DNA of 64,000 bases from Frankiaceae bacterium (GTDB taxonomy: Bacteria > Actinomycetota > Actinomycetes > BP-191): positions 18,258-82,257 of the forward strand of contig DASZER010000016.1 of assembly GCA_035940575.1 (NCBI GenBank), given 5' to 3'. Shown here piece by piece: positions 17,952-40,046 of this stretch; the first letter of the stretch is position 1; each line of letters opens with the position of its first letter. Position numbers and translations under genes: made by a program. The notes under the pieces are model-generated. The model was not told the DNA's origin and did no database searches. It saw only the letters and a list, made by a program, of their open reading frames with translations.

Positions 17952-18587
17952 CTACTTGCCGACGGCCACGCAGGACGCCGAGCCGGCGACGTAGGTCTTG
18001 CCGACCGCGTCGTCCGCCATCTGCAGCGAGCCGCCGCCGGTGGTGGCGCCGGTGGCGGGGTTCGGGACGTACGCGCCGAGGACCCAGTACGTCGTCATCG
18101 TCAGGCCGAGCAGCTTGGTGCTCGGCTTCGGGTTGCCGTACGTCGTCCACGCGCCGACGGGGGCGGAGATGCGGATCTCCTTCTTCGCCGTGTCGTAGAC
18201 GCCGGTCGCCGAGCCGAGCGAGCGGTGGATCGAGCCGTCGACCCAGCCGTAGTTGAACGCCTCGGTGGTCGGCGTGACGCTGTAGCTCAGGTAGATCGGC
18301 GTCGCGGCGCCCGCCGGCGTGAAGTCGAAGTAGTAGCCCTGGCCGGTCGGGGCGTCGGAGTTGCTCTTCGACACGTCGGCGAGGCGGAAGACCGCAGTGA
18401 CCGTCTTCGCGTTCGACGCGAGGTCGCCCGAGACGATGTCGAGCGGCGCGCCGTACTCCGAGTCGCCGGTCGCGTCGGTGATCGTCTTGCACGGCGGCGG
18501 GGGCGGCTTGCGTACGGCGGCGTCGGCGATGCCCACGGTGGACGCGGTGAGCGCGAGCACCGTGAGGGCGAGGACAGGTCGCTGCAT
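17952..18587 (-). CDS. Secreted protein, divergent member (E) of the repeated ~200-aa family
   Basis: ATG at 18587 is preceded by an AGGAGC ribosome-binding site. The signal peptide is MQRPVLALTVLALTASTVGIADA. It then has TITDATGDS and PLDIVSGDL (the family N-terminal motif) and a C-terminal VAVGK. Confidence 0.6.
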   Translation of the reverse strand: MQRPVLALTVLALTASTVGIADAAVRKPPPPPCKTITDATGDSEYGAPLDIVSGDLASNAKTVTAVFRLADVSKSNSDAPTGQGYYFDFTPAGAATPIYLSYSVTPTTEAFNYGWVDGSIHRSLGSATGVYDTAKKEIRISAPVGAWTTYGNPKPSTKLLGLTMTTYWVLGAYVPNPATGATTGGGSLQMADDAVGKTYVAGSASCVAVGK

Positions 18588-18677
18588 GGAGGGGCTCCTA
18601 CGAGTTTCCGAGTGTTGGGAGCCGACTTCGACGGTCCAGCGCCACGTCCTGCTTCCGCTCTCGCTACGTTGCTCCAC

Positions 18678-19496
18678 ATGGGTGAACGCTCCGCCGTCGA
18701 GGCCACGCAGGGGCCGCCCCCGACCGTCCGCACGCTCACCGAGGGCCTCGTGTCCCTCGGCGTCCCGCGCGGCGGCGTGGTGCTCGTGCACTCCTCGCTC
18801 AAGGCGCTCGGGTGGGTCGTGGGCGGCGCCGAGGCGGTCGTGGAGGCGCTGCTCGCCGCGCTCGGTCCCGAGGGGACGCTCGTGGTGCCGTCGTTCTCGA
18901 CGCACCGCACGGACCCGCACCGCTGGGCCAACCCGCCCGTGCCCGAGGAGTGGTGGCAGGTGATCCGCGACGAGATGCCGGCGTTCGACCCGCGGGTCGC
19001 GACGACGCGGCAGATGGGCGCGATCGCCGACTGCGCGCTGCGCTGGCCAGGCACGGTGCGGTCGGCGCACCCGCACCTGTCGTTCGCCGCCAACGGCGCC
19101 CGCGCGCGCGAGGTGGTCGAGCCGCACCCGCTGCCGTTCGGCGTCGGCGACACGTCGCCGCTCGCCTCGCTCTACGACCTCGGCGCCTCCGTGCTGCTGC
19201 TCGGCGTCGGCCACGCGAACAACACGTCGCTGCACCTGTCCGAGCACCGCGCGTCGTGGCCGGGACGGCGCACGTACACCGAGGGCGCGGCGGTGCTGGT
19301 CGACGGGCGGCGCGAGTGGGTGACGTTCGAGGACCTCTGGACGAGCGACGACGACTTCCCGGACATCGGGGCGGCGTACGAGGCCGCCGGCGGCGAGGTC
19401 ACGGTCGGTCGCGTCGGCAGGGGCGAGGCGCGGCTGATGCGCCAGCGCCCGCTGGTCGACTTCGGCGTCGCCGAGATCGAGCGCCGCAGGGCCTAG
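18678..19496 (+). CDS. Aminoglycoside N(3)-acetyltransferase family protein (AAC(3)/Antibiotic_NAT-like)
   Basis: 272 aa. VLVHSSLKALGWVVGGAEAVVEALLAALGPEGTLVVP and DPHRWANPPVP are typical of the AAC(3) family. The ATG was placed by frame arithmetic inside the over-extended 555-aa ORF. Confidence 0.7.
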   Translation: MGERSAVEATQGPPPTVRTLTEGLVSLGVPRGGVVLVHSSLKALGWVVGGAEAVVEALLAALGPEGTLVVPSFSTHRTDPHRWANPPVPEEWWQVIRDEMPAFDPRVATTRQMGAIADCALRWPGTVRSAHPHLSFAANGARAREVVEPHPLPFGVGDTSPLASLYDLGASVLLLGVGHANNTSLHLSEHRASWPGRRTYTEGAAVLVDGRREWVTFEDLWTSDDDFPDIGAAYEAAGGEVTVGRVGRGEARLMRQRPLVDFGVAEIERRRA

Positions 19497-19500
19497 GCGC

Positions 19501-20778
19501 CTACGGCAGGAGGCGCGTCAGCATCGAGTCCAGCGGCGCGCCCCTGGGACGGGGTGGCTGGATCGCGCCGACGACCGTCACCGCGCCGTCGGGCGCGACG
19601 TCGGCGTCGAACCCGCTCTCGTGCAGCGCCGTCGTGCCCTGGATCGAGATGCCGTTGCGGCCGAAGGTCGCGTCGGGCAGCCCGGTCACCGCGAAGCGCG
19701 CGACGACGACGTCGCTCGTGCGCCCCACGGCGGCCTCGCCCGAGACCACGATGCGGCCGTCGCCGTCGACGCCGACCGCGTCGAGGACCGTCGCCTCGCC
19801 CGCGGGGACCGACGCGGTGCCGCCGAGGGCGAAGGTCGGGTCGAGCAGGCCGCTCGGCAGGAACCGCACGACCCTGCCGACGAGCGAGCCGCCCGCGGCG
19901 CCCTGCTCGGTACCGAAGCCCGCCGCGACGATGAGCCCCTGCGGCGTCCGCGCCAGCGCGTTGAACACCGTGCCCGGCATCGTGGTGAGGCCCACGCCGA
20001 ACGTCGGGTCGAGCGCGGCGTTCGGCAGGAACCGCCCGAGGAACGGCGTCGGCGCCGCGTCGTCGGGCACCCGCGCGCCGCCGACCACGACGGACCCGTC
20101 GGGCGGCACGACGACGGCCGCGAACACCGTGTCCGGCACGGGGTCGATCACGGTGCCGTTGCCGAAGAGCGCGTCGGGCTTGCCGTCCGGCAGCAGCCTC
20201 GTGACGAACGACGTGAGCGAGCCCGACGACGTGAACGTCACGCCGACGATCCCGATCGCGCCGTCGACGCCGATCGCCGCGTCCGTCGGGACGGCCAGGC
20301 CGCTGCGGCCGACCGCATGGACGAGCCAGCCGCCGTTGCCGAAGGTCCGGTCCGGCTGCCCGTTCGCCGCGAACCGCGCGGCGAGCACGCCCGTGGTGTG
20401 CCCGGACCTGCCCATGCCGACGACGAGGAGGCGGCCGTCGGAGAGCTGCTCGAGCTCGTACCCGACGCTCTCGCCGCCGAGGGTCGGCCGCACGATGCCG
20501 CGCGAGCCGAACGACGTGTCGAGGCGGCCGTTCGGCAGGTACCGCGCGAGGTACACGTGCGCGCGGGAGCGGTCGTCGTCGTACGTCCCCGCGACGACGG
20601 TCTTGCGGTCGGCCGTCCGGACCACGCCGAACGCCGCGTCGTGGCCCCGCGCGACGCTGTGACGCACCCATCCGCGCGTGCCGAACGACGTGTCGAGCCC
20701 GCCGGGCGCCGCCGTGGCCGGCGTCGCGACGATCAGGCACAGCGCCGTGGCGACGACGCTCGCGCGCACTCCGCGCAT
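19501..20778 (-). CDS. Secreted delta-60-type repeat protein
   Basis: 425 aa with signal peptide MRGVRASVVATALCLIVATPATA and repeated LDTSFG/PDRTFGNGG/LDPTFG units. Confidence 0.65.
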   Translation of the reverse strand: MRGVRASVVATALCLIVATPATAAPGGLDTSFGTRGWVRHSVARGHDAAFGVVRTADRKTVVAGTYDDDRSRAHVYLARYLPNGRLDTSFGSRGIVRPTLGGESVGYELEQLSDGRLLVVGMGRSGHTTGVLAARFAANGQPDRTFGNGGWLVHAVGRSGLAVPTDAAIGVDGAIGIVGVTFTSSGSLTSFVTRLLPDGKPDALFGNGTVIDPVPDTVFAAVVVPPDGSVVVGGARVPDDAAPTPFLGRFLPNAALDPTFGVGLTTMPGTVFNALARTPQGLIVAAGFGTEQGAAGGSLVGRVVRFLPSGLLDPTFALGGTASVPAGEATVLDAVGVDGDGRIVVSGEAAVGRTSDVVVARFAVTGLPDATFGRNGISIQGTTALHESGFDADVAPDGAVTVVGAIQPPRPRGAPLDSMLTRLLP

Positions 20779-20844
20779 GGTTTCCCCCCTGGTCCCGCGT
20801 CTGGGAGCACGCCCGTCCGAGGCGGCCTGAGTGCTACTTCGGCG

Positions 20845-21909
20845 TCAGGGGATGGCAACCCTGCTGTGGTCGCCGAGCATCAGCCGCAACGCCTTCGGGT
20901 GCGCGATCGAGCGCGACAGCTCGACCTCCTTGCCGATGAGCGAGTCCTCGATCCGCTGGATGTCCGCGATGTGCGTCGACTCCAGCACGATCGAGTGCTC
21001 GACCTCGGTGCGCTCCACGAGGCACGAGTGGTAGATCGAGGTGAACGGCCCGACGTACGTGTCGACGATCCGCGTGCCCCTGCCGATGATCGCGGGGCCT
21101 CGCACGGTCGAGCGGACGACCTGCGCGCCCTCCTCGATGACGACGCGGCCGACGAGGCGCGACTCCGTGTCGACCGTTCCGTGGCAGGCCGGCTCGAGCG
21201 ACTCCAGGACCTTGCGGTTGCACTCGAGCATGTCCTCGAGGCGCCCGGTGTCCTTCCAGTAGCCGGTGACGAGGTGCGGCTGCACCTCGCGCCCTGTGTC
21301 GATCAGCCACTGGATCGCGTCGGTGATCTCCAGCTCGCCGCGCGCGCTCGGCTTGATCGCGGCGACCGCCTCGTGGATCGGCGGGCGGAACATGTAGACG
21401 CCGACGAGGGCGAGGTCGCTCTTCGGCTCCCGCGGCTTCTCGACGAGCGTCTGGACCCGCCCGTCCGCGCCGAGCTCCGCGACGCCGAACTGCGACGGGT
21501 TGTCGACCTTGGTCAGGAGGATCTGCGCGTCGGGCTGGTCGCGCTTGAACTCCTCGACCAGCTCGGTGATGCCGCCGACGATGAAGTTGTCGCCGAGGTA
21601 CATCACGAAGTCCTCGTCGCCGAGGAAGTCCCTCGCGATGAGGACGCAGTGCGCGAGGCCGAGGGGGGCCTCCTGCCTGATGTACGTCACCGAGATGCCG
21701 AGCGCCGAGCCGTCGCCGACCGCCGCCATGATCTCCGGCGCGGTGTCGCCGACGATGATGCCGACGTCGGTGACGCCCGCGTCGCGAATGGCCTCGAGGC
21801 CGTAGAACAGCGTCGGCTTGTTCGCGATGGGGACGAGCTGCTTGGCCGACGTGTGCGTGATCGGGCGCAGCCGCGTGCCCGCGCCGCCTGAGAGAACCAG
21901 CGCCTTCAT
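20845..21909 (-). CDS. rmlA: Glucose-1-phosphate thymidylyltransferase (long form)
   Basis: MKALVLSGGAGTRLRPITHTSAKQLVPIANKP. At 354 aa it is the long RmlA type. Confidence 0.9.
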   Translation of the reverse strand: MKALVLSGGAGTRLRPITHTSAKQLVPIANKPTLFYGLEAIRDAGVTDVGIIVGDTAPEIMAAVGDGSALGISVTYIRQEAPLGLAHCVLIARDFLGDEDFVMYLGDNFIVGGITELVEEFKRDQPDAQILLTKVDNPSQFGVAELGADGRVQTLVEKPREPKSDLALVGVYMFRPPIHEAVAAIKPSARGELEITDAIQWLIDTGREVQPHLVTGYWKDTGRLEDMLECNRKVLESLEPACHGTVDTESRLVGRVVIEEGAQVVRSTVRGPAIIGRGTRIVDTYVGPFTSIYHSCLVERTEVEHSIVLESTHIADIQRIEDSLIGKEVELSRSIAHPKALRLMLGDHSRVAIP

Positions 21910-22063
21910 GATGCGGCGCAGGCTAGCAGCGCCGCGTGGTCCGGGGCACGTCGCCCCCCTCGCCCTACCGTGCGGAAGGTGGCCCGGGCGCTACCCTGGC
22001 CTCGCGGCGTGCAACCTACGCCGCGGTTCGTTCGTCTGCTCTGTACGTGGAGACCGCCACCCG

Positions 22064-23512
22064 GTGACCGACAACCCGCACGGCCTCGTGCTGCCCCCCG
22101 AGCTCGACCCGCGCGGGTACGCGCGGCCGAAGCCTCGCTGGGCGCGCGTGCTGTCGTGGCTCGCGGTGCTGACGTCGTTCTCCGTGCTCGCGGCGAGCGG
22201 CATCGGCTACGCCCTCTACCGCCACTACGACGGCAACATCGACCGCGTCCTGCTCCACGTCGGCGGAAAGCGCCCGCCCAAGGTCGCCGGCAAGGCGCTG
22301 AACTTCCTGCTCGTCGGCTCCGACTCGCGCGCCGACATGAGCAAGGAGGAGCTCAAGAGGGCGGCGACGGAGTTCACGCCGGGGCGGCGTTCGGACACCG
22401 TCATCCTCGTGCACGTCTCCGGCGACAGGAACCACGTCACGCTGGTGTCGTTCCCCCGCGACGCCTACGTCACGATCCCCGCGCACGGCAAGGAGAAGGA
22501 GCACGACGGCAAGCTCAACACCGCGTTCTCCATCGGCGGCCCCGGGCTGACGATCGAGACCGTCGAGCGGCTCACCAACGTCCGCGTAGACCACTACGTC
22601 GAGGTCAACTTCGCCGGCTTCCAGCGCCTCGTCGACGCGGTGGACGGCGTCGAGGTGTGCCTCGCCAAGCCGGCGAAGGAGCCGTTGTCGGGCATCAACC
22701 TCCCCGCGGGCAGGCAGGTCATCAAGGGGCAGCAGGCGCTCGCGTTCGTGCGCCAGCGCCACGGCCTGCCGCGCGGCGACCTCGACAGGATCGAGCGGCA
22801 GCAGCAGTTCCTCGGCGCGCTGCTGCGCCGGGCCACGAGCAAGGGTGTGCTGCTCAACGTCGCCCGCCTCAACCGCTTCCTCGAGACCGCCACCGACTCC
22901 GTGCAGGTCGACCAGGACCTCGGCTTCGAGGAGATGCGCACGCTCGCACTGGCGCTGCGCGACCTCGACCCGGCGCGCGTGGCGTTCGTCACCGCTCCTG
23001 TCGACAAGCTCGCGATGCGCCACGGCCAGTCCGTCGTGCTGCTGGACGACGTCGCCGGTGCCGCGATGTTCCAGTCGATCGCCCGCGACGAGCCGCTCGC
23101 CAAGCCCGCCGCCGCGCTGCCCGCGAAGCTCACCGTCCCGCCGTCCCGGATCCGCGTGACCGTCCTCAACGGCACCGGCGTCCAGGGACAGGCCGCGCAG
23201 GCCGGCAACGACCTGCGGCAGGTCGGCTTCCGCGTCGTCGGCACGGGCAACGCGGAGGGCACGGCGTTCGAGCGCACGGTCGTCCGCTACAACGCCGGCG
23301 ACGAGGCCGCGGCCGCGACGCTCGCCGCGTCGTTGCACGGCGCCAAGACCGAGGTCGTACGCACCGGCGGCACGTCGCTCACGGTGGTCGTCGGGCGCGA
23401 CTACAAGGAGCCGGTCGCCGTGAAGGTCGCGGGCACGCCCGCGCCGCGCCCGTCTCGCTCGGCGACCCAGGCGCCCGTCGCCACCGCCGCCGACAACGTC
23501 TGCGCCAAGTGA
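22064..23512 (+). CDS. LCP (LytR-CpsA-Psr) family cell-wall polymer ligase with a LytR_C domain
   Basis: A TM helix, then the LCP core ([53 protein letters not shown]), then a C-terminal LytR_C domain. It is divergent from rmlA. A GTG at 22064 was chosen so that it does not overlap rmlA; alternative starts lie at 21908-22043. Confidence 0.75.
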   Translation: MTDNPHGLVLPPELDPRGYARPKPRWARVLSWLAVLTSFSVLAASGIGYALYRHYDGNIDRVLLHVGGKRPPKVAGKALNFLLVGSDSRADMSKEELKRAATEFTPGRRSDTVILVHVSGDRNHVTLVSFPRDAYVTIPAHGKEKEHDGKLNTAFSIGGPGLTIETVERLTNVRVDHYVEVNFAGFQRLVDAVDGVEVCLAKPAKEPLSGINLPAGRQVIKGQQALAFVRQRHGLPRGDLDRIERQQQFLGALLRRATSKGVLLNVARLNRFLETATDSVQVDQDLGFEEMRTLALALRDLDPARVAFVTAPVDKLAMRHGQSVVLLDDVAGAAMFQSIARDEPLAKPAAALPAKLTVPPSRIRVTVLNGTGVQGQAAQAGNDLRQVGFRVVGTGNAEGTAFERTVVRYNAGDEAAAATLAASLHGAKTEVVRTGGTSLTVVVGRDYKEPVAVKVAGTPAPRPSRSATQAPVATAADNVCAK

Positions 23513-25314
23513 TGGGCGACGACCGCGAGAGGGACCCCGGCGCGCCCGAGGACCCGCCCGTAGCGCCCGCGGGCGTGCCGATGCCGGACGCCGCCGAGCC
23601 TCCCGCCGGCCCGCCCGCCCCCGCCGGCCCGGCCGACCCGCCGTCCCCCACCGCGGCCGACCCCGCCGCGGCCGGCGACGACGCCGGAGAGCCGGCCGGG
23701 GACGAGCCGGGCGACGAGCCCGGCGACGAGCCCGGCGACGAGCCCGGAGACGAGCCGCGCACCGCCGACGGCACCCCCCTGGGCCCGCGGGCGGCGGCGA
23801 TCATCGCGCAGGCCGACGCGGAGTCCCGCGCGTCGTTCGGTCCGCGGCGGCGCAGCCGCAAGCGCCGCGTCGTCCGCGTCTTGTCGTGGATCGCCGTGAT
23901 CACGTCGCTGTCGGTGCTCGTGGCGAGCGCCATCGGCTTCGGCGCGCTCGCCGTCATCAACAGCCACGTGACCCGCAAGTGCATCTTCTGCGGCGAGTCG
24001 CAGGAGGCGCAGCGCGCGCGGCCGAGCAAGGCCGAAGGCGAGGACGGCAAGGCCCTGAACTTCCTGCTCGTCGGCTCCGACTCCCGCGAGGGCGCGACGC
24101 CCGAGGAGCTCAAGCTCTACGGCACCGAGGCCAACCCCGGCGGCATCCTCACCGACACGATCATCCTGGTGCACCTGTCGCCGAAGAAGGACAAGGCCGT
24201 CCTGGTGTCGTTCCCGCGCGACTCATGGGTCGAGATCCCCGGCCACGGCGAGGCGAAGATCAACACGGCGTACGGCCGCGGCGAGCGCGAGCGCAAGGGC
24301 AGCGGCCCCGCGACGCTGATCCGCACGATCGAGAACCTCACCGGCATCTACGTCGACCACTACCTCGAGGTGAAGTTCGGCGGCTTCATCAAGATGGTCG
24401 ACGCGCTCGACGGCGTCGACGTCTGCCTGCCGCGCGCGGTGAAGGACCCCGACTCCGCGCTCGACCTCCCCGCCGGGCAGAGCCGCGTGAGGGGCACGCA
24501 GGCGCTGGCATTCGTGCGGGCGCGCAAGTTCGACCCGACGGGCGACTTCGGGCGCATCCGCCGCCAGCAGCAGTTCCTCGGCTCGATGCTGCGCCGCGCG
24601 ACGAGCCTCGGCATCCTCGCCAGGCCGGACCGGCTCTACCGCTTCCTCGACACGATCGCGAAGAACCTCACCGTCGACGACAAGCTCGGCCTCGACGACA
24701 TGCGCAACCTCGCGTCGAAGCTGCGCGGGCTGGACCCGGCGCGGATCGTGTTCGTGACCGTGCCGTACCAGCCGAAGGGCGTCTACCACGGCAAGCAGCT
24801 CGCCGTGGAGCTGGACGTGCCCGCGGCGCAGGCGCTGTTCGAGTCGATCCGCGGCGACGACGCGATCAAGGCCAACGCCTCCCCCGCGCCGACGCAGCAG
24901 CCGAGCGACCTGATCGTGGCGCCGTCGCGCATCCGCCTGCGCGTCCTCAACGGCAGCGGCGTGGGCGGCGCGGCGGGCAAGGCCGCCGACGACCTGGCCG
25001 AGCTCGGCTTCCAGATCCGCGCGAAGGGCGACGCCGACGCGTCGACGTACGCGCAGACGATCGTGCGCCACGGCCCGTCCAAGGCCGACAGCGCGCGCAC
25101 CGTCGCCGCCGCCATCCCGGGCAGCGCGATCCAGCTCGACCAGACGCTCGGCACGACGATCGAGGTCGTGATCGGCTCGCAGTACAGCGGCGTCCGCCCC
25201 GTCACCGTCTCGACCCCGACCGCCTCCCCGACGGCCCCGGTCGCGACGCCGACCTCGACGCCGTCGCCGCTCAAGACGACGACCGCCGCCGACGAGCCCG
25301 AGGGGTGCCGCTGA
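23512..25314 (+). CDS. LCP family protein, second paralog, with an acidic Pro-rich N-terminal tail
   Basis: ATG overlaps the previous stop as ATGA. The N-terminal cytoplasmic region contains (GDEP)x5, followed by a TM helix, the LCP core ([29 protein letters not shown]) and a LytR_C domain. Confidence 0.8.
23701..23757. repeat. In-frame 12-nt tandem repeat (gacgagcccggc, about 4.7 copies) encoding (DEPG)n in the second LCP gene
   Basis: Directly visible: gacgagccgggcgacgagcccggcgacgagcccggcgacgagcccggagacgagccg. Confidence 0.6.
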
Positions 25315-25925
25315 TGCTGCACGCGCTCGCGGCCGTCCTCGGGCGGCCGGTGCAGGCGGAGCCGGGGACGCCGTTCCTGACGTTCTACGACGACGCCACC
25401 GGCGAGCGCACGGAGCTGTCGTACGCCACCACCGACAACTGGGTCGCGAAGACCGCCAACCTCCTGCGCGAGGGGCTCGACGCGCAGCCTGGCGACGGCG
25501 TCGCCGTGCTGCTGCCGCCGCACTGGCAGACCGTCGTCGTCACGCTCGCGGTGTGGGCGGCGGGCTGCGTGCTCGCCGACGACGGGGACGTGGCGTTCGT
25601 GAGCGAGGCGGCTTTCGGTCGCGTGCCGCCGCGCCGCGAGACCGTCGCGCTGTCGCTGAAGCCGATGGCCGCGCCGATGGACGAGGTGCCGCCCGGCGTC
25701 CTCGACTACGCCGTCGAGATCCCCGTCTACGGCGACCGCTTCACCCCGTCGGCCCCCGGCACCGCGCCCGCGGCCGAGCCCGCGAGCGGCCGCGTGATGG
25801 TGGTCGACGAGGACCCGGTGCCCGCGGCGCTGGCGGCCCTGCACGGGGGCGGCGGCGTCGTCCTCACGGTCAACGCCGACCCCGCGAGGCTGGCCGCGAG
25901 AGCCGAGAGCGAGCGGGCGCACTAG
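25314..25925 (+). CDS. Conserved actinobacterial hypothetical protein, possibly the TIGR03089-type family that accompanies LCP genes
   Basis: 203 aa. ATG overlaps the LCP stop as ATGA. The family assignment is from memory. Confidence 0.5.
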
Positions 25926-25936
25926 GCTCCGACGCC

Positions 25937-26689: not shown

Positions 26690-26690
26690 C

Positions 26691-27353: not shown

Positions 27354-27383
27354 ACCGCCGCGTCGCCGAGGCGTCCTTGGGAT

Positions 27384-29099: not shown

Positions 29100-29546
29100 C
29101 TACGCCCAGGTGAACGTGTACTTGACCGTGCCCGTCGGGCCACCGGCCCAGTTGCAGGCGATGATCGTGTAGACCGTGCCGGCCTTCTTGACCTTGGCGG
29201 TCAGCGACTCGACGGCCGGGTCGACCGGCTGGGTGCCGCCGCTGTTCGCGATCTCGGCGCCCTTGGAGTCGAGGAGCAGCAGGTCCCAGTCGCCCTGGAA
29301 GCCGTTCAGCTCGACCTTGAGCTTGCCGGCGCCGGGCGCCTTGAACTCCTCCGAGTCGTACGACTGCGGCACGGCCTGCGCGCACACCGAGTACGGGCTC
29401 TGCTCCGCGTAGTTCGAGGGGTCCGGCAGCGGGGCCGTCGCGGTGTACGTCTTGGTGATCGGCTTGCGCGGCGCGGCGGTCGCGGGGACGGCCGCACCGG
29501 CGGCGATCAGCGCGGCGGCGGCGGCGAGAACGGGAGTCGTACGCAT
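29100..29546 (-). CDS. Small secreted protein with a PPC (pre-peptidase C-terminal)-like beta-sandwich domain
   Basis: The internal ATG at 29546 gives MRTTPVLAAAAALIAAGAAVPATA (signal peptide). The pattern GDWDLLLLDSKG...AGTVYTIIACNWAGGPTGTVKYTFTWA matches PPC-domain proteins. Confidence 0.5.
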   Translation of the reverse strand: MRTTPVLAAAAALIAAGAAVPATAAPRKPITKTYTATAPLPDPSNYAEQSPYSVCAQAVPQSYDSEEFKAPGAGKLKVELNGFQGDWDLLLLDSKGAEIANSGGTQPVDPAVESLTAKVKKAGTVYTIIACNWAGGPTGTVKYTFTWA

Positions 29547-29663: not shown

Positions 29664-29891
29664 ATGCGCCGACTCCTGCTGCCGCTCCTCGTGCTGTCCG
29701 TCGTGCCGTTCGCGGGCTCCGCGAGCGCCGGCTGCGACTACGACCCCGAGGGCAACCCCGAGTGCCACGCGGTCGACTGCCTCGCCTGGGACCCGACGCC
29801 GCCGCCGCCGGCCGAGCTCGTCGCGCGGGCCACGTCGGGCGACCCCGCGAGCGTCGCGACCTGGGTGCTGCCGCCCGTCTGCCCGAGCTAA
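29664..29891 (+). CDS. Small secreted cysteine-rich peptide (75-aa precursor)
   Basis: MRRLLLPLLVLSVVPFAGSASA followed by a ~53-aa mature region with 4 Cys (GCDYDPEGNPECHAVDCLAWDPTPPPP....PPVCPS). The ribosome-binding site is weak. Confidence 0.35.
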   Translation: MRRLLLPLLVLSVVPFAGSASAGCDYDPEGNPECHAVDCLAWDPTPPPPAELVARATSGDPASVATWVLPPVCPS

Positions 29892-29898
29892 GTACGGG

Positions 29899-30663
29899 CT
29901 AGAGCGGGATCTCCACGGTCATAGTCCAGACCTCGGTCGGCTCGGCCGTGCCCGCGTAGCGCTGGCGCAGCACCCCGCCCGCGCCGTCGCGCGCCGTCGT
30001 GAACCGCGACGAGCCGTACGCGCTGGTGCTGCCCGTCCTGCCGGTCGGGACGAGCCCCGCGGTCGTGTCGTCGCACGGCTGCTCGCCCGGCTGCTCGACG
30101 CAGATCTCGACGCCGCCCCACGTCGCGGGCACCTCGCGCTTGGGCAGCGTCGTGCGGTACGCCGCCAGCACCATCGACCCGTGGCCGCGCAACGGCGTCC
30201 TGGTGTCGCCGCGGTAGCGCACAGGCGAGTCCGCGCGCACGTCCATCCGCTCCGCGCTGACGGGCACGCGCGTCCGCCGCGTGACGCGCGCGGCGACGTT
30301 GTGGCGCAGCCCGCGCGCGAGCACGCGTACGGTCGCCCGGCCGTCGGCGACGAGGTACACGCGGTATTTGCCGGCGGGCAGCGGCTCGTACGGCCCTGAC
30401 CGCACGACGCCGAAGCCGTGCTCCTGGATCGCGATGACGTCGTCGGCGAGGCTCGCGCCGGTCTTGTGCACGTAGATGCCGCTCACGCGCCCGGACGTCC
30501 GGTACTGCGTGTAGAGCGTGTCGAGGGTGACCTCGGTGTCGAACGTCACGTCGACGTAGCCCGAGCCGTCGCCGGTGACCGTCAGGAACCGGTCGTGGTC
30601 CGCGTACGCGGGCACCGCCGTCGCGCCCAGGAGCAGCACCGCCGCCAGGAGCCTTCGCGTCAT
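29899..30663 (-). CDS. Secreted hypothetical protein
   Basis: The internal ATG at 30663 gives MTRRLLAAVLLLGATAVPAYA (signal peptide) and 254 aa. The start overlaps the thioesterase stop as ATGA. Confidence 0.55.
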   Translation of the reverse strand: MTRRLLAAVLLLGATAVPAYADHDRFLTVTGDGSGYVDVTFDTEVTLDTLYTQYRTSGRVSGIYVHKTGASLADDVIAIQEHGFGVVRSGPYEPLPAGKYRVYLVADGRATVRVLARGLRHNVAARVTRRTRVPVSAERMDVRADSPVRYRGDTRTPLRGHGSMVLAAYRTTLPKREVPATWGGVEICVEQPGEQPCDDTTAGLVPTGRTGSTSAYGSSRFTTARDGAGGVLRQRYAGTAEPTEVWTMTVEIPL

Positions 30664-31166: not shown

Positions 31167-31274
31167 GACGGCGACGCTATCGCTCTGCCACGCTCGTCCC
31201 GTGACCGACCGCTTCCGCCCGCTGGTCGCCCGGATCGAGCGGGCGCGCGCGACGGCACCTCGGGCGGTGACGGC

Positions 31275-31691: not shown

Positions 31692-31792
31692 GCAGGTTGC
31701 GGGCCGTCACGACGTCAGGACCCCAGGGTCGCCCCGTTGCTCGTCGCACTGCTGGACGGCCCTGACGTGGCCGTCCACGCTCCGGGGCCGCG

Positions 31793-32338: not shown

Positions 32339-32481
32339 CAGAGCGGCCAGATCGTCCGCTTCAGGTCCTGACCCCACGCCTCCCCCTCGCTGGCACACGA
32401 CCGTCACACAGAGGCGCGCCGACGACCAGTCCGACCAGTCCACGTCCTCGGCAGTGACAGGGCATCGTGGCCCTGCTCGAC

Positions 32482-33636: not shown

Positions 33637-33747
33637 ACGGCCAATCGTAATGGCGCGCCGGTATGGCCCGGATTGGGCCGAACGCCCCCTTCAGTACGGC
33701 ACACGCGGACTATTCAGCCCCGGCGGGGACCCGACGATGACCACTCC

Positions 33748-36078
33748 GTGACCATCGAGGACTACGTCCCCCGGCACGCCGACGCGGCGCCGCCGCGGCG
33801 CCGGCGCCTGGGCGAGGTCCTGGTCGCCTCGGGCGTCATCACCGAGGCCGAGCTGAACGGCCTCCTCGCCGAGCAGGCGTCGCAGCCGCGCGAGCTCCGC
33901 AAGCGCCTCGGCGCGATGGTCGTCGAGAAAGGCATGGCCGCCGAGCGCGACATCGCGACGGCGCTGGCCGCCGTCATGGGCCTGGAGATGGTCGACGTCG
34001 CGCGCCTCGGCGTCGCGCCCGCGGCCGCCAGGCTGATCCCGCGCGCGGTCGCCGAGCGCTACGCCGTCCTCGGCGTCGCGTACGCCGAGGGCCGCCTCAC
34101 GCTCGCGATGGCCGACCCGACCGACGTCGTCGCGCTGGACGACGTACGCCTCTACACCAAGGCCCGCACGATCGTCACGGTCGTCGCGACCGAGGGCGCT
34201 ATCCGCGAGCACCTCGCCCGCGCGTGGAGCCTCGAGGAGGACGCGTCCGACGTCGCCGGCATGTTCGAGGCGCTGGAGGAGCAGGCGCCCGAGGAGGACG
34301 ACGACAACGACGCCGAGTCGACCCCCACGGTCAAGCTCGTCAACGTCATCCTCTCCGACGCCGTCCACGCCCGCGCCTCGGACATCCACCTGCAGCCCGA
34401 GCTCGACGGCCTGCGCGTCCGCTACCGCGTGGACGGCCTGCTGCGCGACGTCATGACGGTGCCGCGCAGCGCGGTCGCCTCCGTCACGAGCCGCGTCAAG
34501 ATCATGTCGGGCCTCGACATCGCCGAGCGCCGCCGCCCGCAGGACGGCCGTACGCGGCTGTCGGTCGACGGCGACCAGATCGACGCGCGCATCTCGACGC
34601 TGCCCTCGATGCACGGCGAGAAGGTCGTCATCCGCCTGCTCGCCCGCGGCGAGGGCGTGCTGCCGCTGTCGCGCGTCGGGTTCAGCGAGCGGCAGATGGA
34701 CGCGATCCTCGACGCGCTCGTCGCGCCGCAGGGCCTCGTCCTCATCACCGGCCCGACCGGCTCGGGCAAGACGTCGACGCTGTACTCCGCGATGACGCAG
34801 ATGCGTACGCCCGACCGCAACATCGTCACGCTCGAGGACCCCGTCGAGGTCCAGCTCCGCGGCATCACGCAGGTCCAGACGAACGAGCGCGCGGGCCTGA
34901 CGTTCGCGGCCGGCCTGCGGTCCGTGCTGCGCCAGGACCCCGACGTCATCCTCGTCGGCGAGATCCGCGACAGCGAGACCGCCGAGCTGGCGCTGCGCGC
35001 GTCGCTGACCGGCCACGTCGTCTTCTCGACCCTGCACACGAACGACGCCTCCGCGGCCGTCACCCGCCTGGTCGACATGGGCATCGAGCCGTTCCTCATC
35101 GCGTCGTCGCTGACGCTCGTCGTCGCGCAGCGGCTCGTCCGCGTGCCGTGCTCGCACTGCGCCTCGCCGTACACGCCGAGCCCGCGCACGCTCCAGCTCC
35201 TCGGCCTCACCGAGTCCGACCTCGCCGGCGCCACCGTCGTGCGCGGCCGCGGCTGCGAGCAGTGCGGCCAGACCGGCTACCTCGGCCGCACCGCGATCTT
35301 CGAGGTGCTGCCCGTCGACCAGTCGCTGCGCGCGGTGCTGACGTCGCGACCCACCGAGAACGCGATCCGCGAGGCCGCGCGCGCGGCCGGCGTGGCGTCG
35401 TTGCGCGGCGACGGCGTCGCCCGCGCGCTGCGCGGCGAGACGACGCTCGAGGAGGTGCTGCGCGTCACGCAGGTCGACCACTCCGCGACCGGCAACCACT
35501 GCCCCACGTGCGACCGCTCGCTCGAGGAGGACATGGCGTTCTGCCCGTGGTGCGCGGCCTCCGTCGGGCGCCATGCGTGCGCCGGCTGCTCGCGCAGGCT
35601 CGACGCCGAGTGGCGCGTCTGCCCGTGGTGCCGTACCGCCGCCGGCGGCACGGTCGCGGCCGCCCCTGCCGAGGAGCCCGAACGCGCCCGTCCCCGCATC
35701 CTCGTGGTGGACGACGACGAGCACGTGCTCGACTTCGTGGAGGCGGCGCTCGTCGACATCTGCGACGTCGTCCGCGCGCGCAGCGCGGAGGAGGCGCTGC
35801 GCGCCGCCGCCACCGAGGACGTCGCGGCGATGGTGCTCGACCTCGTGCTGCCCGACCTGTCGGGCGTCGAGGTCACGAGGCTGCTGCGCGCCGACGCGCG
35901 GACCGCGCTGATCCCGTTGCTGCTGCTGACCGGCACGGACGACCCGCTGATGCGCACCGAGGCGTCGACGGCCGGCGCGGACCTGTACCTGTCGAAGCCG
36001 ATCGAGCCCGCCGCCCTCGAGGCCGCGGTCTGCCTGCTGCTGGAGCGCGCCGCCCTCGCCCCCGAGACCGCCCCCTAG
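33748..36078 (+). CDS. GspE/PilB-family secretion ATPase with an MshEN-type N-terminal domain, two extra zinc ribbons and a C-terminal response-regulator receiver (REC) domain
   Basis: GTG start at 33748. The N-terminus (RLGEVLVASGVITEAELNGLLAEQ) matches the MshEN c-di-GMP-binding motif. The GspE core has Walker A GPTGSGKTSTLY, TLEDPVE, and RQDPDVILVGEIRD..TA..A..A..TGHVVFSTLHTN, plus the canonical tetracysteine CSHC...CEQC. Beyond that there are two further CxxC...CPWC ribbons, then a REC domain with all key residues (VVDDDE, LDLVLPD, LLLTG, LSKP). Confidence 0.8.
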   Translation: MTIEDYVPRHADAAPPRRRRLGEVLVASGVITEAELNGLLAEQASQPRELRKRLGAMVVEKGMAAERDIATALAAVMGLEMVDVARLGVAPAAARLIPRAVAERYAVLGVAYAEGRLTLAMADPTDVVALDDVRLYTKARTIVTVVATEGAIREHLARAWSLEEDASDVAGMFEALEEQAPEEDDDNDAESTPTVKLVNVILSDAVHARASDIHLQPELDGLRVRYRVDGLLRDVMTVPRSAVASVTSRVKIMSGLDIAERRRPQDGRTRLSVDGDQIDARISTLPSMHGEKVVIRLLARGEGVLPLSRVGFSERQMDAILDALVAPQGLVLITGPTGSGKTSTLYSAMTQMRTPDRNIVTLEDPVEVQLRGITQVQTNERAGLTFAAGLRSVLRQDPDVILVGEIRDSETAELALRASLTGHVVFSTLHTNDASAAVTRLVDMGIEPFLIASSLTLVVAQRLVRVPCSHCASPYTPSPRTLQLLGLTESDLAGATVVRGRGCEQCGQTGYLGRTAIFEVLPVDQSLRAVLTSRPTENAIREAARAAGVASLRGDGVARALRGETTLEEVLRVTQVDHSATGNHCPTCDRSLEEDMAFCPWCAASVGRHACAGCSRRLDAEWRVCPWCRTAAGGTVAAAPAEEPERARPRILVVDDDEHVLDFVEAALVDICDVVRARSAEEALRAAATEDVAAMVLDLVLPDLSGVEVTRLLRADARTALIPLLLLTGTDDPLMRTEASTAGADLYLSKPIEPAALEAAVCLLLERAALAPETAP

Positions 36079-36187
36079 GAGGGTTCTGCGAAACCCGGCC
36101 CTGCTGCGCCGAGTCCGCGCGACGCAGGGCGGCTGCGGGCTGGGTCATGCCCCGCAGGCGACCGAGAACGCAGCCGGTCGTACCCTC

Positions 36188-36664
36188 CTAGTCGCAGGCG
36201 GGGCCGCTGCCGGGCAGCGGCCCGACGATCCTCCCGAACGCCGCCGCGATCGTCGCGAGCTCCTCCTGCGTGAGAAGGTCCACGACGTGCTCGCGCACGC
36301 CGCGCAGGTGCACGGGCGCCGCGGCCTTGAGCCGCGCGAGGCCCTCGTCCGTCAGCACGGCGTTGGTGCCGCGCAGGTCGCTCGGGCACGACTCGCGGCG
36401 GATGAGCCCCTCGCGCTCCAGCCGGTCGACCAGGCGCGTCAGGCCGCTGCGGGACAGCAGCACGCGGTCCGCGAGGTCGGTCATCCGCAGGCGGCGGCCG
36501 GGGGCGTCGTTGAGGTGCAGCAGCACCTCGTACGAGCCGAGCGGCAGGTCGCACTCGGCCGTCAGCTCCGCGTCGAGCAGGCGCGTCACCTTGGCGTGCG
36601 CGCGGAGGAACGACCGCCACGCGTCGAGCTCGACGTGTGAGAGCGAGGAGACCCGGGTACCCAT
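36188..36664 (-). CDS. MarR family transcriptional regulator
   Basis: 158-aa winged-helix protein (LTRLVDRLEREGLIRRE). It is divergent from yceI. Confidence 0.85.
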   Translation of the reverse strand: MGTRVSSLSHVELDAWRSFLRAHAKVTRLLDAELTAECDLPLGSYEVLLHLNDAPGRRLRMTDLADRVLLSRSGLTRLVDRLEREGLIRRESCPSDLRGTNAVLTDEGLARLKAAAPVHLRGVREHVVDLLTQEELATIAAAFGRIVGPLPGSGPACD

Positions 36665-36678
36665 GTCTTAGAGGATAG

Positions 36679-36732
36679 TTGCGCATGCAATAAACGTCGA
36701 GTACGTTGCGTTCACAACAGTTGCATACGCAA
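36679..36732. promoter_or_regulatory. Putative MarR operator: inverted repeat TTGCGCATGCAA (36679-36690) and TTGCATACGCAA (36721-36732), plus GTTG-N6-CAAC (36705-36718), in an AT-rich divergent intergenic region
   Basis: The two 12-mers are reverse complements with one mismatch. The region is conspicuously AT-rich for this genome and lies between divergently transcribed marR and yceI. Confidence 0.4.
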
Positions 36733-36757
36733 TCAACTACCGACAGGAGCTCACCCC

Positions 36758-37327
36758 ATGTCCGTCCAGACCACGACCTCGGTCGAGCAGCTCACCGGCA
36801 CCTACGACATCGACCCCAGCCACTCGAGCCTCGAGTTCGCCGCCAAGCACGCGATGGTGACGACCGTGAAGGGCCGCTTCAGCGACTTCAGCGGCGTGCT
36901 CTACCTCGACGCCGCCGACCCCTCGAAGTCCACCGCCGAGGTCACCATCAACGTCGACAGCCTCGACACGCGCAGCGAGCAGCGCGACGAGCACCTGCGC
37001 GGCGACGACTTCTTCGACGTCGCCAACAACCCGACGATCACGTTCAAGAGCACCCGCGCGGCGGCCGGCAAGGACGAGGACGAGTACCGCATGTGGGGCG
37101 ACCTGACGATCCGCGGCGTGTCCCGCGAGGTCGAGCTCGAGCTCACGTTCACCGGAAGCGCGCAGGACCCGTGGGGCAAGCAGCGCGCCGGCTTCGAGGG
37201 CCGCACGGTCGTCAACCGCAAGGACTGGGGCCTGACGTGGAACGTCGCCCTGGAGGCCGGCGGCATCCTCGTCAGCGACAAGGTGAAGCTCAACCTCGAC
37301 ATCGCCGCGGTGAAGCGCGACGCGTAG
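36758..37327 (+). CDS. YceI family protein
   Basis: 189 aa. DIDPSHSSLEFAAKHAMVTTVKGRF and WGDLTIRGVSREVELELTF fit the YceI family. A GGAGC ribosome-binding site lies upstream. Confidence 0.85.
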   Translation: MSVQTTTSVEQLTGTYDIDPSHSSLEFAAKHAMVTTVKGRFSDFSGVLYLDAADPSKSTAEVTINVDSLDTRSEQRDEHLRGDDFFDVANNPTITFKSTRAAAGKDEDEYRMWGDLTIRGVSREVELELTFTGSAQDPWGKQRAGFEGRTVVNRKDWGLTWNVALEAGGILVSDKVKLNLDIAAVKRDA

Positions 37328-37338
37328 CACCGCGGTGA

Positions 37339-37402
37339 TCCGGGCTTGGCTGGGAGCCCGGGAAACACGAAGGAGCCCGTCCCCTCGGGGGCGGGCTCCT
37401 TC
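37339..37402. terminator. Two adjacent GC-rich hairpins (37340-37362 and 37369-37402) between convergent yceI and the family-F secreted gene
   Basis: CCGGGCTtggctggGAGCCCGG and GAAGGAGCCCGTCCCCtcgGGGGCGGGCTCCTTC (stem about 15 bp). No T-tract, as is usual for high-GC actinobacteria. Confidence 0.45.
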
Positions 37403-37417
37403 GTGGAAGCGGAGGGA

Positions 37418-38035
37418 CTAGCTGCCGACCTTGTAGACCGCGTCGGTCTCCGCGCGGTCCACGGACGGGGCGGTGAGCGCGACCTCGTTGCCGCGGGCGT
37501 CGGCGCCCAGGCCGCCCCACACGGCGCCGGCCTTGAGGCCCGCGGCCTTGAACGCCTTGACCGGGATGGTCCACGTGATCGTGCTGCCGTCGATCTTCGC
37601 CGACACGTCCGTGTAGGCGTAGCCCGTCGTGCCGTCGTCGCAGGTACGGACCGCGGCGCCGTTGAGCGAGGCGTCGGGGTTGATGCTCTGCTCGGTCCAG
37701 AACTCGCAGCCGCCGATGTCGCCGACCACGCGGTAGATGCCGATCGTCGGCGCCGCCGCGAGCTTGAGGCTGACGAGGACCTTGGTCGCGGCGCTGCCTG
37801 CCTTGTCCGTGACGATCTTCACCTCGCGGATGTCGAACGCGTCGACCTGGCCGGGGGTCGCGGTGCCGCCCGACGGCCCGGCGCCGAGGCCGGGGTCGAG
37901 CGCGTTGGCGTCGCCGGCGAGGTCGGTGAACACGAGCGGCTTCGGCGCGGCCGGCTTCTTGGCTGCGGCGTTGGCGACGCCCGGCACGGCGAGCGCGACG
38001 GCGAGGGTCGCGGCGGCGGCGGTACGGATCTTCAC
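37418..38035 (-). CDS. Secreted protein, divergent member (F) of the repeated ~200-aa family
   Basis: GTG start at 38035 (VKIRTAAAATLAVALAVPGVANA signal peptide). FTDLAGDANA, DAFDIREVKIV and STITWTIPV are family motifs. Confidence 0.6.
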   Translation of the reverse strand: MKIRTAAAATLAVALAVPGVANAAAKKPAAPKPLVFTDLAGDANALDPGLGAGPSGGTATPGQVDAFDIREVKIVTDKAGSAATKVLVSLKLAAAPTIGIYRVVGDIGGCEFWTEQSINPDASLNGAAVRTCDDGTTGYAYTDVSAKIDGSTITWTIPVKAFKAAGLKAGAVWGGLGADARGNEVALTAPSVDRAETDAVYKVGS

Positions 38036-38177
38036 TGGGAGGTCCCCTTCTGGGTAACGGCCATCTCTGGGTCTTTCGACGCTGGGAAGCCGTGCCCTGC
38101 CCGGCCCCGTACACTGAACGAGCGAGGCGGCAGCGGGACACGCGCCGCACCCCATCCCTTGTGAGGACACGTTCTCG

Positions 38178-39302
38178 ATGCCGACTGTCGAGCAGGTCAA
38201 CGCCGCGCTGGCGACCGTGCAGGACCCGGAGATCCACAAGCCGATCACCGAGCTGAACATGGTCGAGTCGGTGGACGTCGGCGCCGACGGCGTCGTCTCC
38301 GTACGCGTGCTGCTGACGGTCGCCGGCTGCCCGTTGAAGGACAAGATCACCCGCGACGTCACCGAGGCCGTCTCCGCGCTGCCCGGCGTCACCGGCGTCC
38401 GCGTCGACCTCGGCGTGATGGACGACGAGCAGCGCGCGGCGCTCCAGACGCAGCTCCGCGGCGGGCAGGCCACGCGCGAGATCCCGTTCGCGCAGCCGGG
38501 CTCGCTGACCCGCGTCTACGCCGTCGCGTCCGGCAAGGGCGGCGTCGGCAAGTCGTCGGTCACCGCCAACCTCGCGGCCGCGATGGCGGCCAACGGCCTG
38601 AAGGTCGGCGTCGTCGACGCGGACATCTACGGCTTCTCGATCCCGCGCATGCTCGGCGTCGAGGGCCGCCCGACGCAGGTCGAGTCGATGATCATGCCGC
38701 CGACCTCGCACGGCGTGAAGGTCATCTCGATCGGCATGTTCGTGCAGGGCAACCAGCCGGTCGTGTGGCGCGGCCCGATGCTGCACAGGGCGTTGCAGCA
38801 GTTCCTCTCCGACGTGTTCTGGGGCGACCTCGACGTCCTGCTCTGCGACCTCCCGCCGGGCACCGGCGACATCGCCATCTCGATCGCGCAGCTCATCCCG
38901 AGCGCGGAGATCCTCGTCGTCACGACGCCGCAGCTCGCCGCGCGCGAGGTGGCCGAGCGCGCCGGCTCGATCGCGGTGCAGACGCGCCAGCGGCTCGCCG
39001 GCGTCGTCGAGAACATGGCCGGGCTCGCGTGCCCGCACTGCGGCGACCACGTGGACGTGTTCGGCTCGGGCGGCGGCCAGGCGGTCGCCGAGGCGCTGAC
39101 GCGGACCATCGGCGCGCCGGTGCCGTTGCTCGGCCAGGTGCCGATCGACGTGCGCCTGCGCGAGGGCGGTGACAACGGCACGCCGCTCGTGCTCAGCGAC
39201 CCCGACTCCGCCGCCGCGAAGGAGCTGCGCCGCATCGCCGACCAGCTCGGCACGCGTTCGCGCGGCCTCGCCGGTCGCTCCCTCGGCCTCTCCCCCGCGT
39301 AG
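38178..39302 (+). CDS. mrp: Mrp/ApbC family Fe-S cluster carrier ATPase
   Basis: N-terminal DUF59-like domain, deviant Walker A GKGGVGKSS, and the CPHCG motif. Confidence 0.9.
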   Translation: MPTVEQVNAALATVQDPEIHKPITELNMVESVDVGADGVVSVRVLLTVAGCPLKDKITRDVTEAVSALPGVTGVRVDLGVMDDEQRAALQTQLRGGQATREIPFAQPGSLTRVYAVASGKGGVGKSSVTANLAAAMAANGLKVGVVDADIYGFSIPRMLGVEGRPTQVESMIMPPTSHGVKVISIGMFVQGNQPVVWRGPMLHRALQQFLSDVFWGDLDVLLCDLPPGTGDIAISIAQLIPSAEILVVTTPQLAAREVAERAGSIAVQTRQRLAGVVENMAGLACPHCGDHVDVFGSGGGQAVAEALTRTIGAPVPLLGQVPIDVRLREGGDNGTPLVLSDPDSAAAKELRRIADQLGTRSRGLAGRSLGLSPA

Positions 39303-39356
39303 CGCACGCGAAAGGGCCGCGACCGAGGTCGCGGCCCTTCGTCGTGCGCGTGCCCG

Positions 39357-40046
39357 CTACGCGAGCGTGAACGAGTCGCCGTCCTTCGCCGAGTTGTCGA
39401 CGACGCCGTTGGCGGCGCCGCAGGTGCGGCCGAGCTCGGGCGTGTCGTCCGGCGTGCAGGTGTTGTAGTCCTGCAGCTCGCGGACCTCGAACCACAGGTC
39501 CGTGATCTTCGTGCCGGCCTTCACGCCGGAGTCCGCCGGGATCGCGGACATCGGGACGGTCCAGGTGATCGTGTTGTCCTTGATGACCGGCGCGGGGATC
39601 GCGGTGAGGCGGATCGTCTCGTCGATGCAGTCGTCGCGCAGCGCGGACTGCGGGATCTGGTCGTCGCTGCCGGGGTTGGTGTAGTAGACGACGCCGAAGA
39701 TGCCGCACTTCGGCGTCGTGCCGAGCATGCGGTAGACGAGCGCGGTCGGGTCGGGCGGCGTCGGCGGGCCCGACAGCGTCGTCGTGACCGTGAAGCCGGT
39801 GACCGTCGTGACGGTCTTGCCCTTGACCTTCTTCGTCGTCTTCGTCGTCTGCCACAGCACCGACGTGACGTCGGCGTACGCCTGGGTGAGCGGCACCGTG
39901 GTGTTGTCGCGGGTGGCCTCGTGGTTGACGTTGGCCGTGAAGTTCGCGTCACCGGAGGGGTCGGTGACCTGGGGTGCCGGCGCGGCACCGGCGTGCGGGG
40001 CGAGCAGCGCCAGCGCGAGCGCGGGCGCGAGAACGAGACGGCGCAT
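39357..40046 (-). CDS. Secreted protein, divergent member (G) of the repeated ~200-aa family
   Basis: ATG at 40046 is preceded by a strong AGGAGGGGG ribosome-binding site. Signal peptide MRRLVLAPALALALLAPHAGA. PQVTDPSGDANF and NTITWTVPMSAIP are family motifs. Confidence 0.6.
   Translation of the reverse strand: MRRLVLAPALALALLAPHAGAAPAPQVTDPSGDANFTANVNHEATRDNTTVPLTQAYADVTSVLWQTTKTTKKVKGKTVTTVTGFTVTTTLSGPPTPPDPTALVYRMLGTTPKCGIFGVVYYTNPGSDDQIPQSALRDDCIDETIRLTAIPAPVIKDNTITWTVPMSAIPADSGVKAGTKITDLWFEVRELQDYNTCTPDDTPELGRTCGAANGVVDNSAKDGDSFTLA

Follow-up and report, generated by a model that had tools for sequence, protein, structure and literature searches.

Seven secreted proteins in a Frankiaceae cell-envelope region as probable diverged paralogs of one unnamed superfamily

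Families of secreted paralogs restricted to a single lineage are common in Actinomycetota. Such families, for example those near the cell-wall genes of Mycobacteriales, comprise small Sec-exported proteins that have duplicated both in tandem and to dispersed sites, diverge fast and lie beside envelope genes. These traits recur in seven genes, labelled A to G, in a 64,000-nucleotide (nt) stretch of DNA from a Frankiaceae bacterium (assembly GCA_035940575.1, contig DASZER010000016.1, positions 18,258 to 82,257 of the forward strand), called the window throughout. Unlike the described expansions, the seven proteins have no sequence or fold relation to any named family.

Known beta-sandwich proteins provide a second point of comparison. 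Chain C of the PDB entry 2ivf is the gamma subunit of ethylbenzene dehydrogenase, a DOMON-like heme-b-binding beta-sandwich. In carbohydrate-binding modules (CBM) of the CBM6 and CBM35 families, a structural Ca2+ bridges the N- and C-terminal strands. Set beside these systems, A to G are very probably seven diverged paralogs of one unnamed, lineage-restricted superfamily that has expanded. The superfamily is new to the curated libraries (Pfam, NCBIfam, PADLOC, PHROGs and PDB), yet of a familiar kind. The overall explanation joins this paralog superfamily to three duplication hot spots and to a proposed Ca2+-stabilised binding in the envelope, and is given a probability of roughly 60%.

Seven genes in four subfamilies

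All seven genes are on the minus strand. Four tandem copies, as the original prediction had described, occupy 3591-6030 between a DUF1003 gene (3029-3586) and an ABC-2 exporter gene (6114-6974): A (3591-4169, 192 aa, VGX28_03740), B (4166-4738, 190 aa, GTG start, VGX28_03745), C (4741-5367, 208 aa, VGX28_03750) and D (5404-6030, 208 aa, VGX28_03755), the first of the array. The copies are packed for translational coupling: A begins with a GTG that shares bases with the TGA stop of B (GTGA), and B begins, 3 nt past the stop of C, with a GTG that has a GGAGG just upstream, within the end of C. The dispersed copies are E (17952-18587, 211 aa, VGX28_03810), F (37418-38035, 205 aa, GTG start) and G (39357-40046, 229 aa, VGX28_03925). 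All three were found as open reading frames (ORFs) where they had been predicted, and E and G are also deposited gene calls (100% identity, full length). The deposited names for VGX28_03740-03755, _03810 and _03925 are all ‘hypothetical protein’ [Frankiaceae bacterium].

E is flanked by rmlB (16892-17863) and an Antibiotic_NAT acetyltransferase gene (18669-19496). G is the sole copy between mrp (38178-39302, plus strand) and tatB (40543-40842, minus strand) and is convergent with mrp. The original prediction had placed two copies in that interval; this is correct for G but not for F, which is divergent from mrp and sits between it and a yceI-like gene (36758-37327). Two copies between mrp and tatB do occur in three relatives (L002, L004 and L031, where L numbers denote related genome or metagenome loci).

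Six-frame ORF lists are uninformative at the G+C content of the window (72-76%), and genes were therefore called with a score based on G+C at third codon positions (GC3). The set searched with hidden Markov models (HMMs) in the window was its 382 six-frame ORFs. An HMM of the four tandem copies, signal peptides included, returned G at E=3e-8, F at E=0.045 and E at E=0.27, the last being noise, level with an unrelated ORF. With the mature parts alone, each protein was compared with 1000 shuffled versions of itself: 0/1000 reached the 22.3 bits of F or the 18.2 bits of G, and 9/1000 attained the 5.9 bits of E. F and G were thus retrieved by the four-copy model while E was marginal, so that profile-profile methods were needed for E.

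Relatives were gathered for each type: 90 F-type representatives of 50%-identity clusters (phmmer, library of 1.84 billion proteins), 142 G-type, 34 E-type and 17 tandem-type sequences, the last including the 4 window copies. Those of all types are unnamed metagenomic proteins of ~190-240 aa without a Pfam domain. The F-family HMM found G (1.5e-34) and A to D (1e-17 to 1e-21) among the window ORFs, and phmmer with F alone matched two G-family proteins (P0075 and P0119). Four family HMMs found no member in the window past the seven; the secreted proteins at 29100, 29899, 57191, 57904 and 12614 were considered and are not members.

The seven proteins divide into a tandem-type subfamily (A-D) and one subfamily each of E-type, F-type and G-type, with only 19-29% identity between subfamilies. 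Tandem copies are mutually 48-61% identical, and their nearest relative outside their own genome is at 62-66% identity. Profile-profile comparison with hhalign on signal-peptide-trimmed profiles united F-type with G-type (99.9%, E=1.8e-36), F-type with tandem-type (99.6%, E=5.3e-25) and G-type with tandem-type (99.3%, E=3.9e-20). F-type and E-type aligned at 97-98% (E ~1e-11 to 1e-12, score 71-79) over ~145 collinear columns; 40 column shuffles of this pair gave a maximum of 18.5 and the reversed profile 14. For tandem-type against E-type the values were 74.7% and a score of 38, compared with a shuffle maximum of 20. Across the controls for the E-type profile, shuffle maxima were 18.5-20 and reversed scores 14-17. 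The link of F-type to E-type therefore lies far above a composition-preserving null.

A very improbable alternative is that E is an unrelated secreted beta-sandwich protein that came by its signal peptide and its TDxxGD...LDIVS motifs through convergence. Besides its weak showing with the four-copy HMM (the 5.9 bits given above), E is missed by the F-, G- and tandem-type HMMs (E=1.5-3.8), its profile matches the G-type profile only locally (14-22%), and it has no TITW strand and another cysteine pattern. Convergence would not readily account for the profile scores against the F-type and tandem-type families, for four aspartates and a proline in register with the other subfamilies, for the same order of secondary structure in the models of E and F, or for the tandem placement of E-type genes beside those of the F-type and G-type in three relatives (L007, L031 and L083). 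The E-type copies of L083 match the F-type HMM at ~1e-5. The claim that all three dispersed genes belong to the family of A to D accordingly holds clearly for F and G, and for E through profile-profile comparison; as judged from these alignments, E appears to be a remote member, not an obvious one.

When 17 sequences drawn from the four subfamilies are aligned together, D38, D42, D68, P96 and D193 (numbering of F) are invariant, and the signature aspartates are invariant or nearly so inside each single-family alignment. The four Asp correspond to D38, D42, D50 and D192 of E. Besides the four Asp and one Pro, Gly is nearly invariant (>=90%). In the common core, strand 1 ends in (T/R/V)D-x-x-(G/K)-D, a second Asp comes just before strand 2 (LDI/VDV), strand 3 is followed by A-P, and the last strand contains an Asp. 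The predicted motif architecture was partly upheld. (I/V/F)TDxxGD with a nearby D(I/V) is present in E, F and G, whereas (S/N)TITWT(I/V)P is confined to F and G among the dispersed copies. E reads ITDATGD, LDIVS and, in the strand aligned with TITW, KKEIRISAPVG. The TITW strand is consequently a feature of subfamilies and not of the superfamily.

Scans of the seven proteins against Pfam and NCBIfam, and of 86 F-type and 34 E-type relatives against Pfam, gave no meaningful match. PADLOC and PHROGs held no family match, and PDB sequence searches with three family profiles returned nothing or noise (E >=0.09). The literature on glucodextranase, DOMON and CBM9 contained nothing found to concern this family, which is so far known only from uncultured Frankiaceae and Mycobacteriales metagenome-assembled genomes (MAGs) and from soil metagenomes.

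Fold, export and proposed function

AlphaFold models were obtained for F (86-sequence alignment; predicted local distance difference test, pLDDT, 87.5; predicted template modelling score, pTM, 0.81) and for E (34 sequences; pLDDT 84.9, pTM 0.78), with the signal-peptide residues 1-20 at low pLDDT in both. The two models are all-beta and have the same order of 11 strands and one helix, which directly follows the TITW/EIRIS strand. A short strand 1 ends at the TD motif and is followed by a 3-10 turn, strand 2 right past the second Asp, seven strands, the helix and two long final strands, the last of which holds the fourth Asp.

By inspection, E, F and G have the predicted signal peptides, with a basic n-region, a hydrophobic core and an AxA-type site (ADA|A, ANA|A and AGA|A among the three), and A to D likewise have a signal peptide with an AxA-type cleavage site. 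No lipobox (L-[AS]-[GA]-C) and no Cys at the cleavage site is found in any of the seven proteins; the first Cys of E comes 10 residues past ADA|AV, behind a PPPPP stretch. Their C-termini (...YKVGS, ...SFTLA, ...CVAVGK, ...GTWRLR) carry no sortase anchor (LPXTG, hydrophobic segment, basic tail) and, by inspection, no C-terminal transmembrane segment. G begins with MRRLVL, and R2 and R3 are conserved in >=90% of its family, while E, F and A to D have no RR motif. The n-region of G is just 3 residues long and its h-region strongly hydrophobic, as opposed to the long n-region and mildly hydrophobic h-region of the Tat type. The members are likely, with considerable confidence, to be small, secreted, single-domain beta-sandwich proteins of ~170-205 residues when mature, exported by Sec.

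Searches of the PDB with Foldseek mostly returned antibody V domains. The sole non-antibody match to span most of both models was 2ivf_C (Foldseek probability 1.00), ranked first for F (E=3.5e-3, TM 0.44, 175 alignment columns) and fourth for E (E=1.5e-3, TM 0.39, 215 alignment columns). This protein is likewise an extracytoplasmic all-beta sandwich of ~200 residues and is the best full-length structural match of the two models. On its account the family might be read as DOMON-like redox or heme-binding subunits that serve extracytoplasmic electron transfer, as in ethylbenzene dehydrogenase gamma. That role is the least probable of those considered: the family alignments hold no invariant or near-invariant Met, Lys or His, the invariant residues being four Asp and one Pro, and since no residue of heme-ligand type is conserved a redox function is unlikely. 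Neither the seven proteins nor the 86 F-type and 34 E-type relatives match DOMON-like or EB_dh families (PF09459 and relatives) in Pfam even at E up to 1-10, and molybdoenzyme, cytochrome or other redox partner genes are absent nearby. The match has 10% identity and a TM below 0.5, compatible with a generic sandwich, the family has no sequence match in Pfam or the PDB, and its four-Asp signature cannot be linked to a DOMON-like family. A search of a viral structure library was uninformative (best match E=0.057, TM 0.35).

Glucodextranase of Arthrobacter globiformis (1ug9) is a weak match of the E model at rank 43 (E=0.023, TMq 0.37). This enzyme includes a C-terminal sandwich domain of wall-binding type (Glucodextran_C of Pfam). 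The likeness lies in D-x-x-G-D on the first sandwich strand and a second Asp before strand 2; the motif resemblance ‘DPxGD ... DL/DI ... strand’ serves as a lead only. The present family differs in consisting of stand-alone single domains that are not glycoside hydrolase modules, and it has no Pfam match at relaxed thresholds. With CBM6/CBM35 modules the family has in common the notion of a metal site built from an acidic N-terminal strand and a C-terminal Asp. They differ in that the family has no Pfam CBM match, and none is among the top 50 Foldseek hits listed. A sequence relationship with CBM6/35 was considered and rejected. Although a ‘GGTITWKV’ strand led phmmer with F to a pectinase-like protein (P0226), where three CBM6/35 modules were hit (E=6.9e-7 for the 3 repeats taken together), hhalign gave <9% probability over 15-21 columns, in which only GxTITWxV aligns, and the hit is put down to motif coincidence.

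As in many carbohydrate-binding jelly rolls, the four Asp could bind a structural Ca2+ and so hold the N-terminal and C-terminal strands together. By this analogy such a site has somewhat less than an even chance. Within the E-type subfamily Cys33 is invariant and Cys206 nearly so (>=90%), one near each end of the protein, while the internal pair of the tandem type (C88/C125 in copy D) is kept in the F-type and G-type and is missing from the E-type. Both cysteine patterns would fit an oxidising, extracytoplasmic location, where the pairs may form disulfides. With such a Ca2+ site, the proteins would act as extracytoplasmic binding modules for a cell-envelope ligand, most plausibly the wall glycopolymer with rhamnose that the adjacent genes produce, and paralogs would diverge in what they recognise; binding of an envelope glycan is a tentative proposal and rather doubtful.

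Rates of evolution set F and G apart from their surroundings. The Mrp of the window is 98% identical to that of L001, a Mycobacteriales MAG, and 90-93% identical to those of Frankiaceae MAGs. Relative to L001, identity is 79-91% for the remaining neighbours, 75% for F and 67% for G. Evolution is faster in F and G than in all neighbouring genes compared, with Nei-Gojobori ratios of nonsynonymous to synonymous change (dN/dS) of 0.45 and 0.60, compared with 0.06-0.40 for nine neighbours. With such divergence and 95% GC3 these ratios are rough, and they do not tell relaxed constraint apart from positive selection. In L004 and L005 the genes in the F slot are just 33-35% identical to F beside 92-93% identical Mrp, and may be paralogous replacements. 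E-type orthologs are fairly conserved (68-86%) and syntenic.

Such divergence would also suit fast-diversifying secreted or surface proteins that mainly face other organisms (for example as phage-receptor decoys, adhesins or factors directed at competitors or a host) and not the wall polymer of the cell itself. In favour of this are the dN/dS of F and G, the highest of the locus, slot occupants just 33-38% identical beside 79-93% identical Mrp, the recurrence of tandem arrays, and the 62-66% identity that separates the tandem copies from their nearest outside relative. It is nevertheless an unlikely reading: PADLOC, PHROGs and the viral structure library gave no match, the proteins have no LPXTG, lipobox or C-terminal transmembrane segment by inspection, and the E-type orthologs are conserved and in synteny.

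Binding within the envelope is preferred, and several points weigh against the explanation of which it is part. Profile-versus-sequence searches do not reach E, the structural matches are weak (TM 0.39-0.44) and leave any CBM-like or DOMON-like class assignment loose, and the dN/dS values carry the caveat stated with them. Distant members are found in heterogeneous, unrelated gene contexts, so that an association with envelope genes applies only to the close clade, and this association could merely reflect where duplications landed.

Slots in relatives and expansion

The window is a cell-envelope region of the chromosome, as judged from the Pfam assignments of the neighbouring genes, and the family occupies three hot spots in it. 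The first is DUF1003, the four tandem copies, then the ABC-2 polysaccharide exporter and glycosyltransferases. The second places E between rmlB and the acetyltransferase gene, with rmlA and an LCP ligase further along; the window holds rmlA, rmlB and rmlD, and an Rv3811-like amidase also lies around E. The third runs yceI, F, mrp, G and then tatB-htrA-rseB-rseA-sigE, in which rseB denotes a MucB/RseB-like gene.

Expansion into a conserved backbone, another element of the original prediction, is borne out by the mrp locus. The comparison set comprised 80 mrp loci from genome assemblies, 73 of them with tatB in the usual orientation downstream. The two genes are close together in most actinomycetes: the gap has a median of 125 nt in 65 family-free loci and is <=400 nt in 50 of them. 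In 8 family-bearing loci it is 815-1931 nt, and 1240 nt in the window. All family-bearing loci belong to a close clade with Mrp >=79% identical, in which some loci at 82-85% are without the family.

Within this clade the same slots are filled by different members. F lies before mrp and G after it in L001 and L005, both F and G lie between mrp and tatB in L002 and L004, and L007 has E, F and E before mrp and G after it. The order in L031 is E, mrp, G, F and tatB. In L083 the slot between rmlB and the LCP gene, which is the slot of E in the window, holds an E-type gene, an unrelated secreted gene, another E-type gene and then a G-type gene. E-type genes thus occupy F-type and G-type slots in relatives. 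L081 has a 68% identical E ortholog in the context of the window itself (acetyltransferase, E, rmlB), and L085 a four-copy array of the tandem type between ABC2_membrane and DUF1003, as in the window. A metagenome scan added 30 further loci, 7 of them with arrays of 2-3 F-type genes. With high confidence, the family expanded through local duplication and relocation at the three hot spots of this cell-envelope region, its slots being reused by different subfamilies.

Patchiness (8 of the 80 mrp loci, with some loci of 82-85% identical Mrp lacking the family) and the presence of other, unrelated inserts at the mrp-tatB junction of Streptomyces and Terrabacter might instead suggest that the genes arrived beside mrp as mobile-element cargo or through recent horizontal acquisition. 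Little probability is attached to this, as transposase or integrase genes, tRNA-like features and flanking direct repeats are missing around F and G, where the sole repeats are paralogous coding motifs and terminator hairpins. The G+C of 0.71-0.72 is close to the ~0.73 of the window, GC3 is genome-typical, and orthologs keep their slots across relatives with 79-98% identical Mrp. Given no mobile-element signature and a window-like G+C, the expansion looks endogenous, a matter of duplication and relocation in the lineage and not of recent horizontal transfer.

If it is sound, this account turns seven hypothetical genes of one region into a single evolving system instead of unrelated ORFs, and it flags three duplication hot spots in an otherwise conserved envelope region of Frankia-like actinomycetes. 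The signature of four Asp and one Pro is simple and testable, and annotators would be justified in setting up a new model for the family, which would take in a few hundred proteins from metagenomes at least. It also points to fast-evolving exported proteins that may bind wall glycopolymer. The wider impact is limited by the uncultured lineage, by the generic sandwich fold and by how common such secreted paralog families are in Actinomycetota. A bolder proposal, to which only a small chance is given, is that these proteins represent a new calcium-dependent beta-sandwich fold class, a fast-diversifying exported repertoire arising from repeated duplication at fixed slots around the wall glycopolymer, mrp/tat and sigE genes of an uncultured Frankiales lineage. 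Variable surface-protein families would thereby have a counterpart in actinobacteria, its paralogs being adapted to differing ligands of the envelope or the environment.

Further features were seen in the related loci. A metagenome contig (L110, Ga0190268_10000034; Mrp 92% identical) has mrp-F-yceI-marR ~2.3 kb from a tandem-type copy beside DUF1003; two hot spots with 30 kb between them in the window lie nearly side by side there, which suggests a large rearrangement between them. The secreted protein between the two E-type genes of L083 (3418-4041, minus strand) has 207 aa and matches neither Pfam nor the family HMMs. Three tandem 187-aa Cys-rich secreted paralogs near a distant E-type gene in L082 (364-2720, plus strand) were considered and belong to a different family; together with a 936-aa protein lacking a Pfam match they stand just upstream of that gene.

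Transcription and other genes of the window

Two hairpins located by repeat search lie at the ends of F and G. The one at 37366-37405 (19-nt arms, 95% complementary, 2-nt loop) falls between the convergent stops of yceI and F and is likely a bidirectional terminator that would make F its own transcription unit. The other, at 39302-39349 (23-nt arms, 87% complementary, 2-nt loop), falls between the convergent stops of mrp and G and is a likely bidirectional terminator as well. Scans with sigma-70 promoter and intrinsic-terminator consensus sequences around E, F and G gave nothing above shuffle expectation.

Control of the family by SigE was considered and set aside, as GGAAC-N15-18-(C/G)GTT is present upstream of sigE itself (43618-44199) and of none of the seven genes. 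Only four SigE-type motifs occur in the whole window. The one at ~44292-44317 on the minus strand (GGAACGCGGCGGGCGCCCGGGCCGTT, GGAAC-N16-CGTT) starts ~118 nt upstream of the sigE start and would fit autoregulation. The MucB/RseB-like gene (42051-43112, minus strand) has the N- and C-terminal MucB_RseB domains of Pfam and lies between rseA and htrA in the sigE operon. It is present by tblastn in most Frankiales, Actinomadura and Mycobacteriales loci. As a putative RseB-type partner of actinobacterial SigE/RseA, it may merit a separate look.

A Cys-rich secreted ORF (40197-40538, plus strand, 113 aa) between G and tatB has a TTG start behind GGAGG, a signal peptide, 6 Cys in its mature part and only a modest GC3 coding score. 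A tblastn search of the 80 mrp loci gave no match to it, and the gap between G and tatB is ~130 nt in L001 compared with 497 nt in the window, which together indicate a very recent gain or a gene unique to the lineage. In relatives G comes straight after the htrA-tatB transcription unit; in the window this ORF stands between the two. Another small secreted ORF (29664-29891, plus strand, 75 aa, 5 Cys), without a Pfam match, lies between two secreted-protein genes.

A separate uncharacterised secreted family is encoded at 57191-57901 and 57904-58620 (both plus strand; 39% identical over 225 aa, E=1e-41), with a possible distant third copy at 29899-30663 (minus strand; 27% identity over 147 aa). 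These proteins have no Pfam match and are unrelated to the seven-copy family. A gene at 33748-36078 (plus strand) encodes a 776-aa fusion of unusual architecture, in which MshEN, a T2SSE secretion/pilus ATPase and a double zinc ribbon are combined with a C-terminal response-regulator receiver domain. Across the close clade this fusion keeps its place upstream of marR-yceI-mrp.

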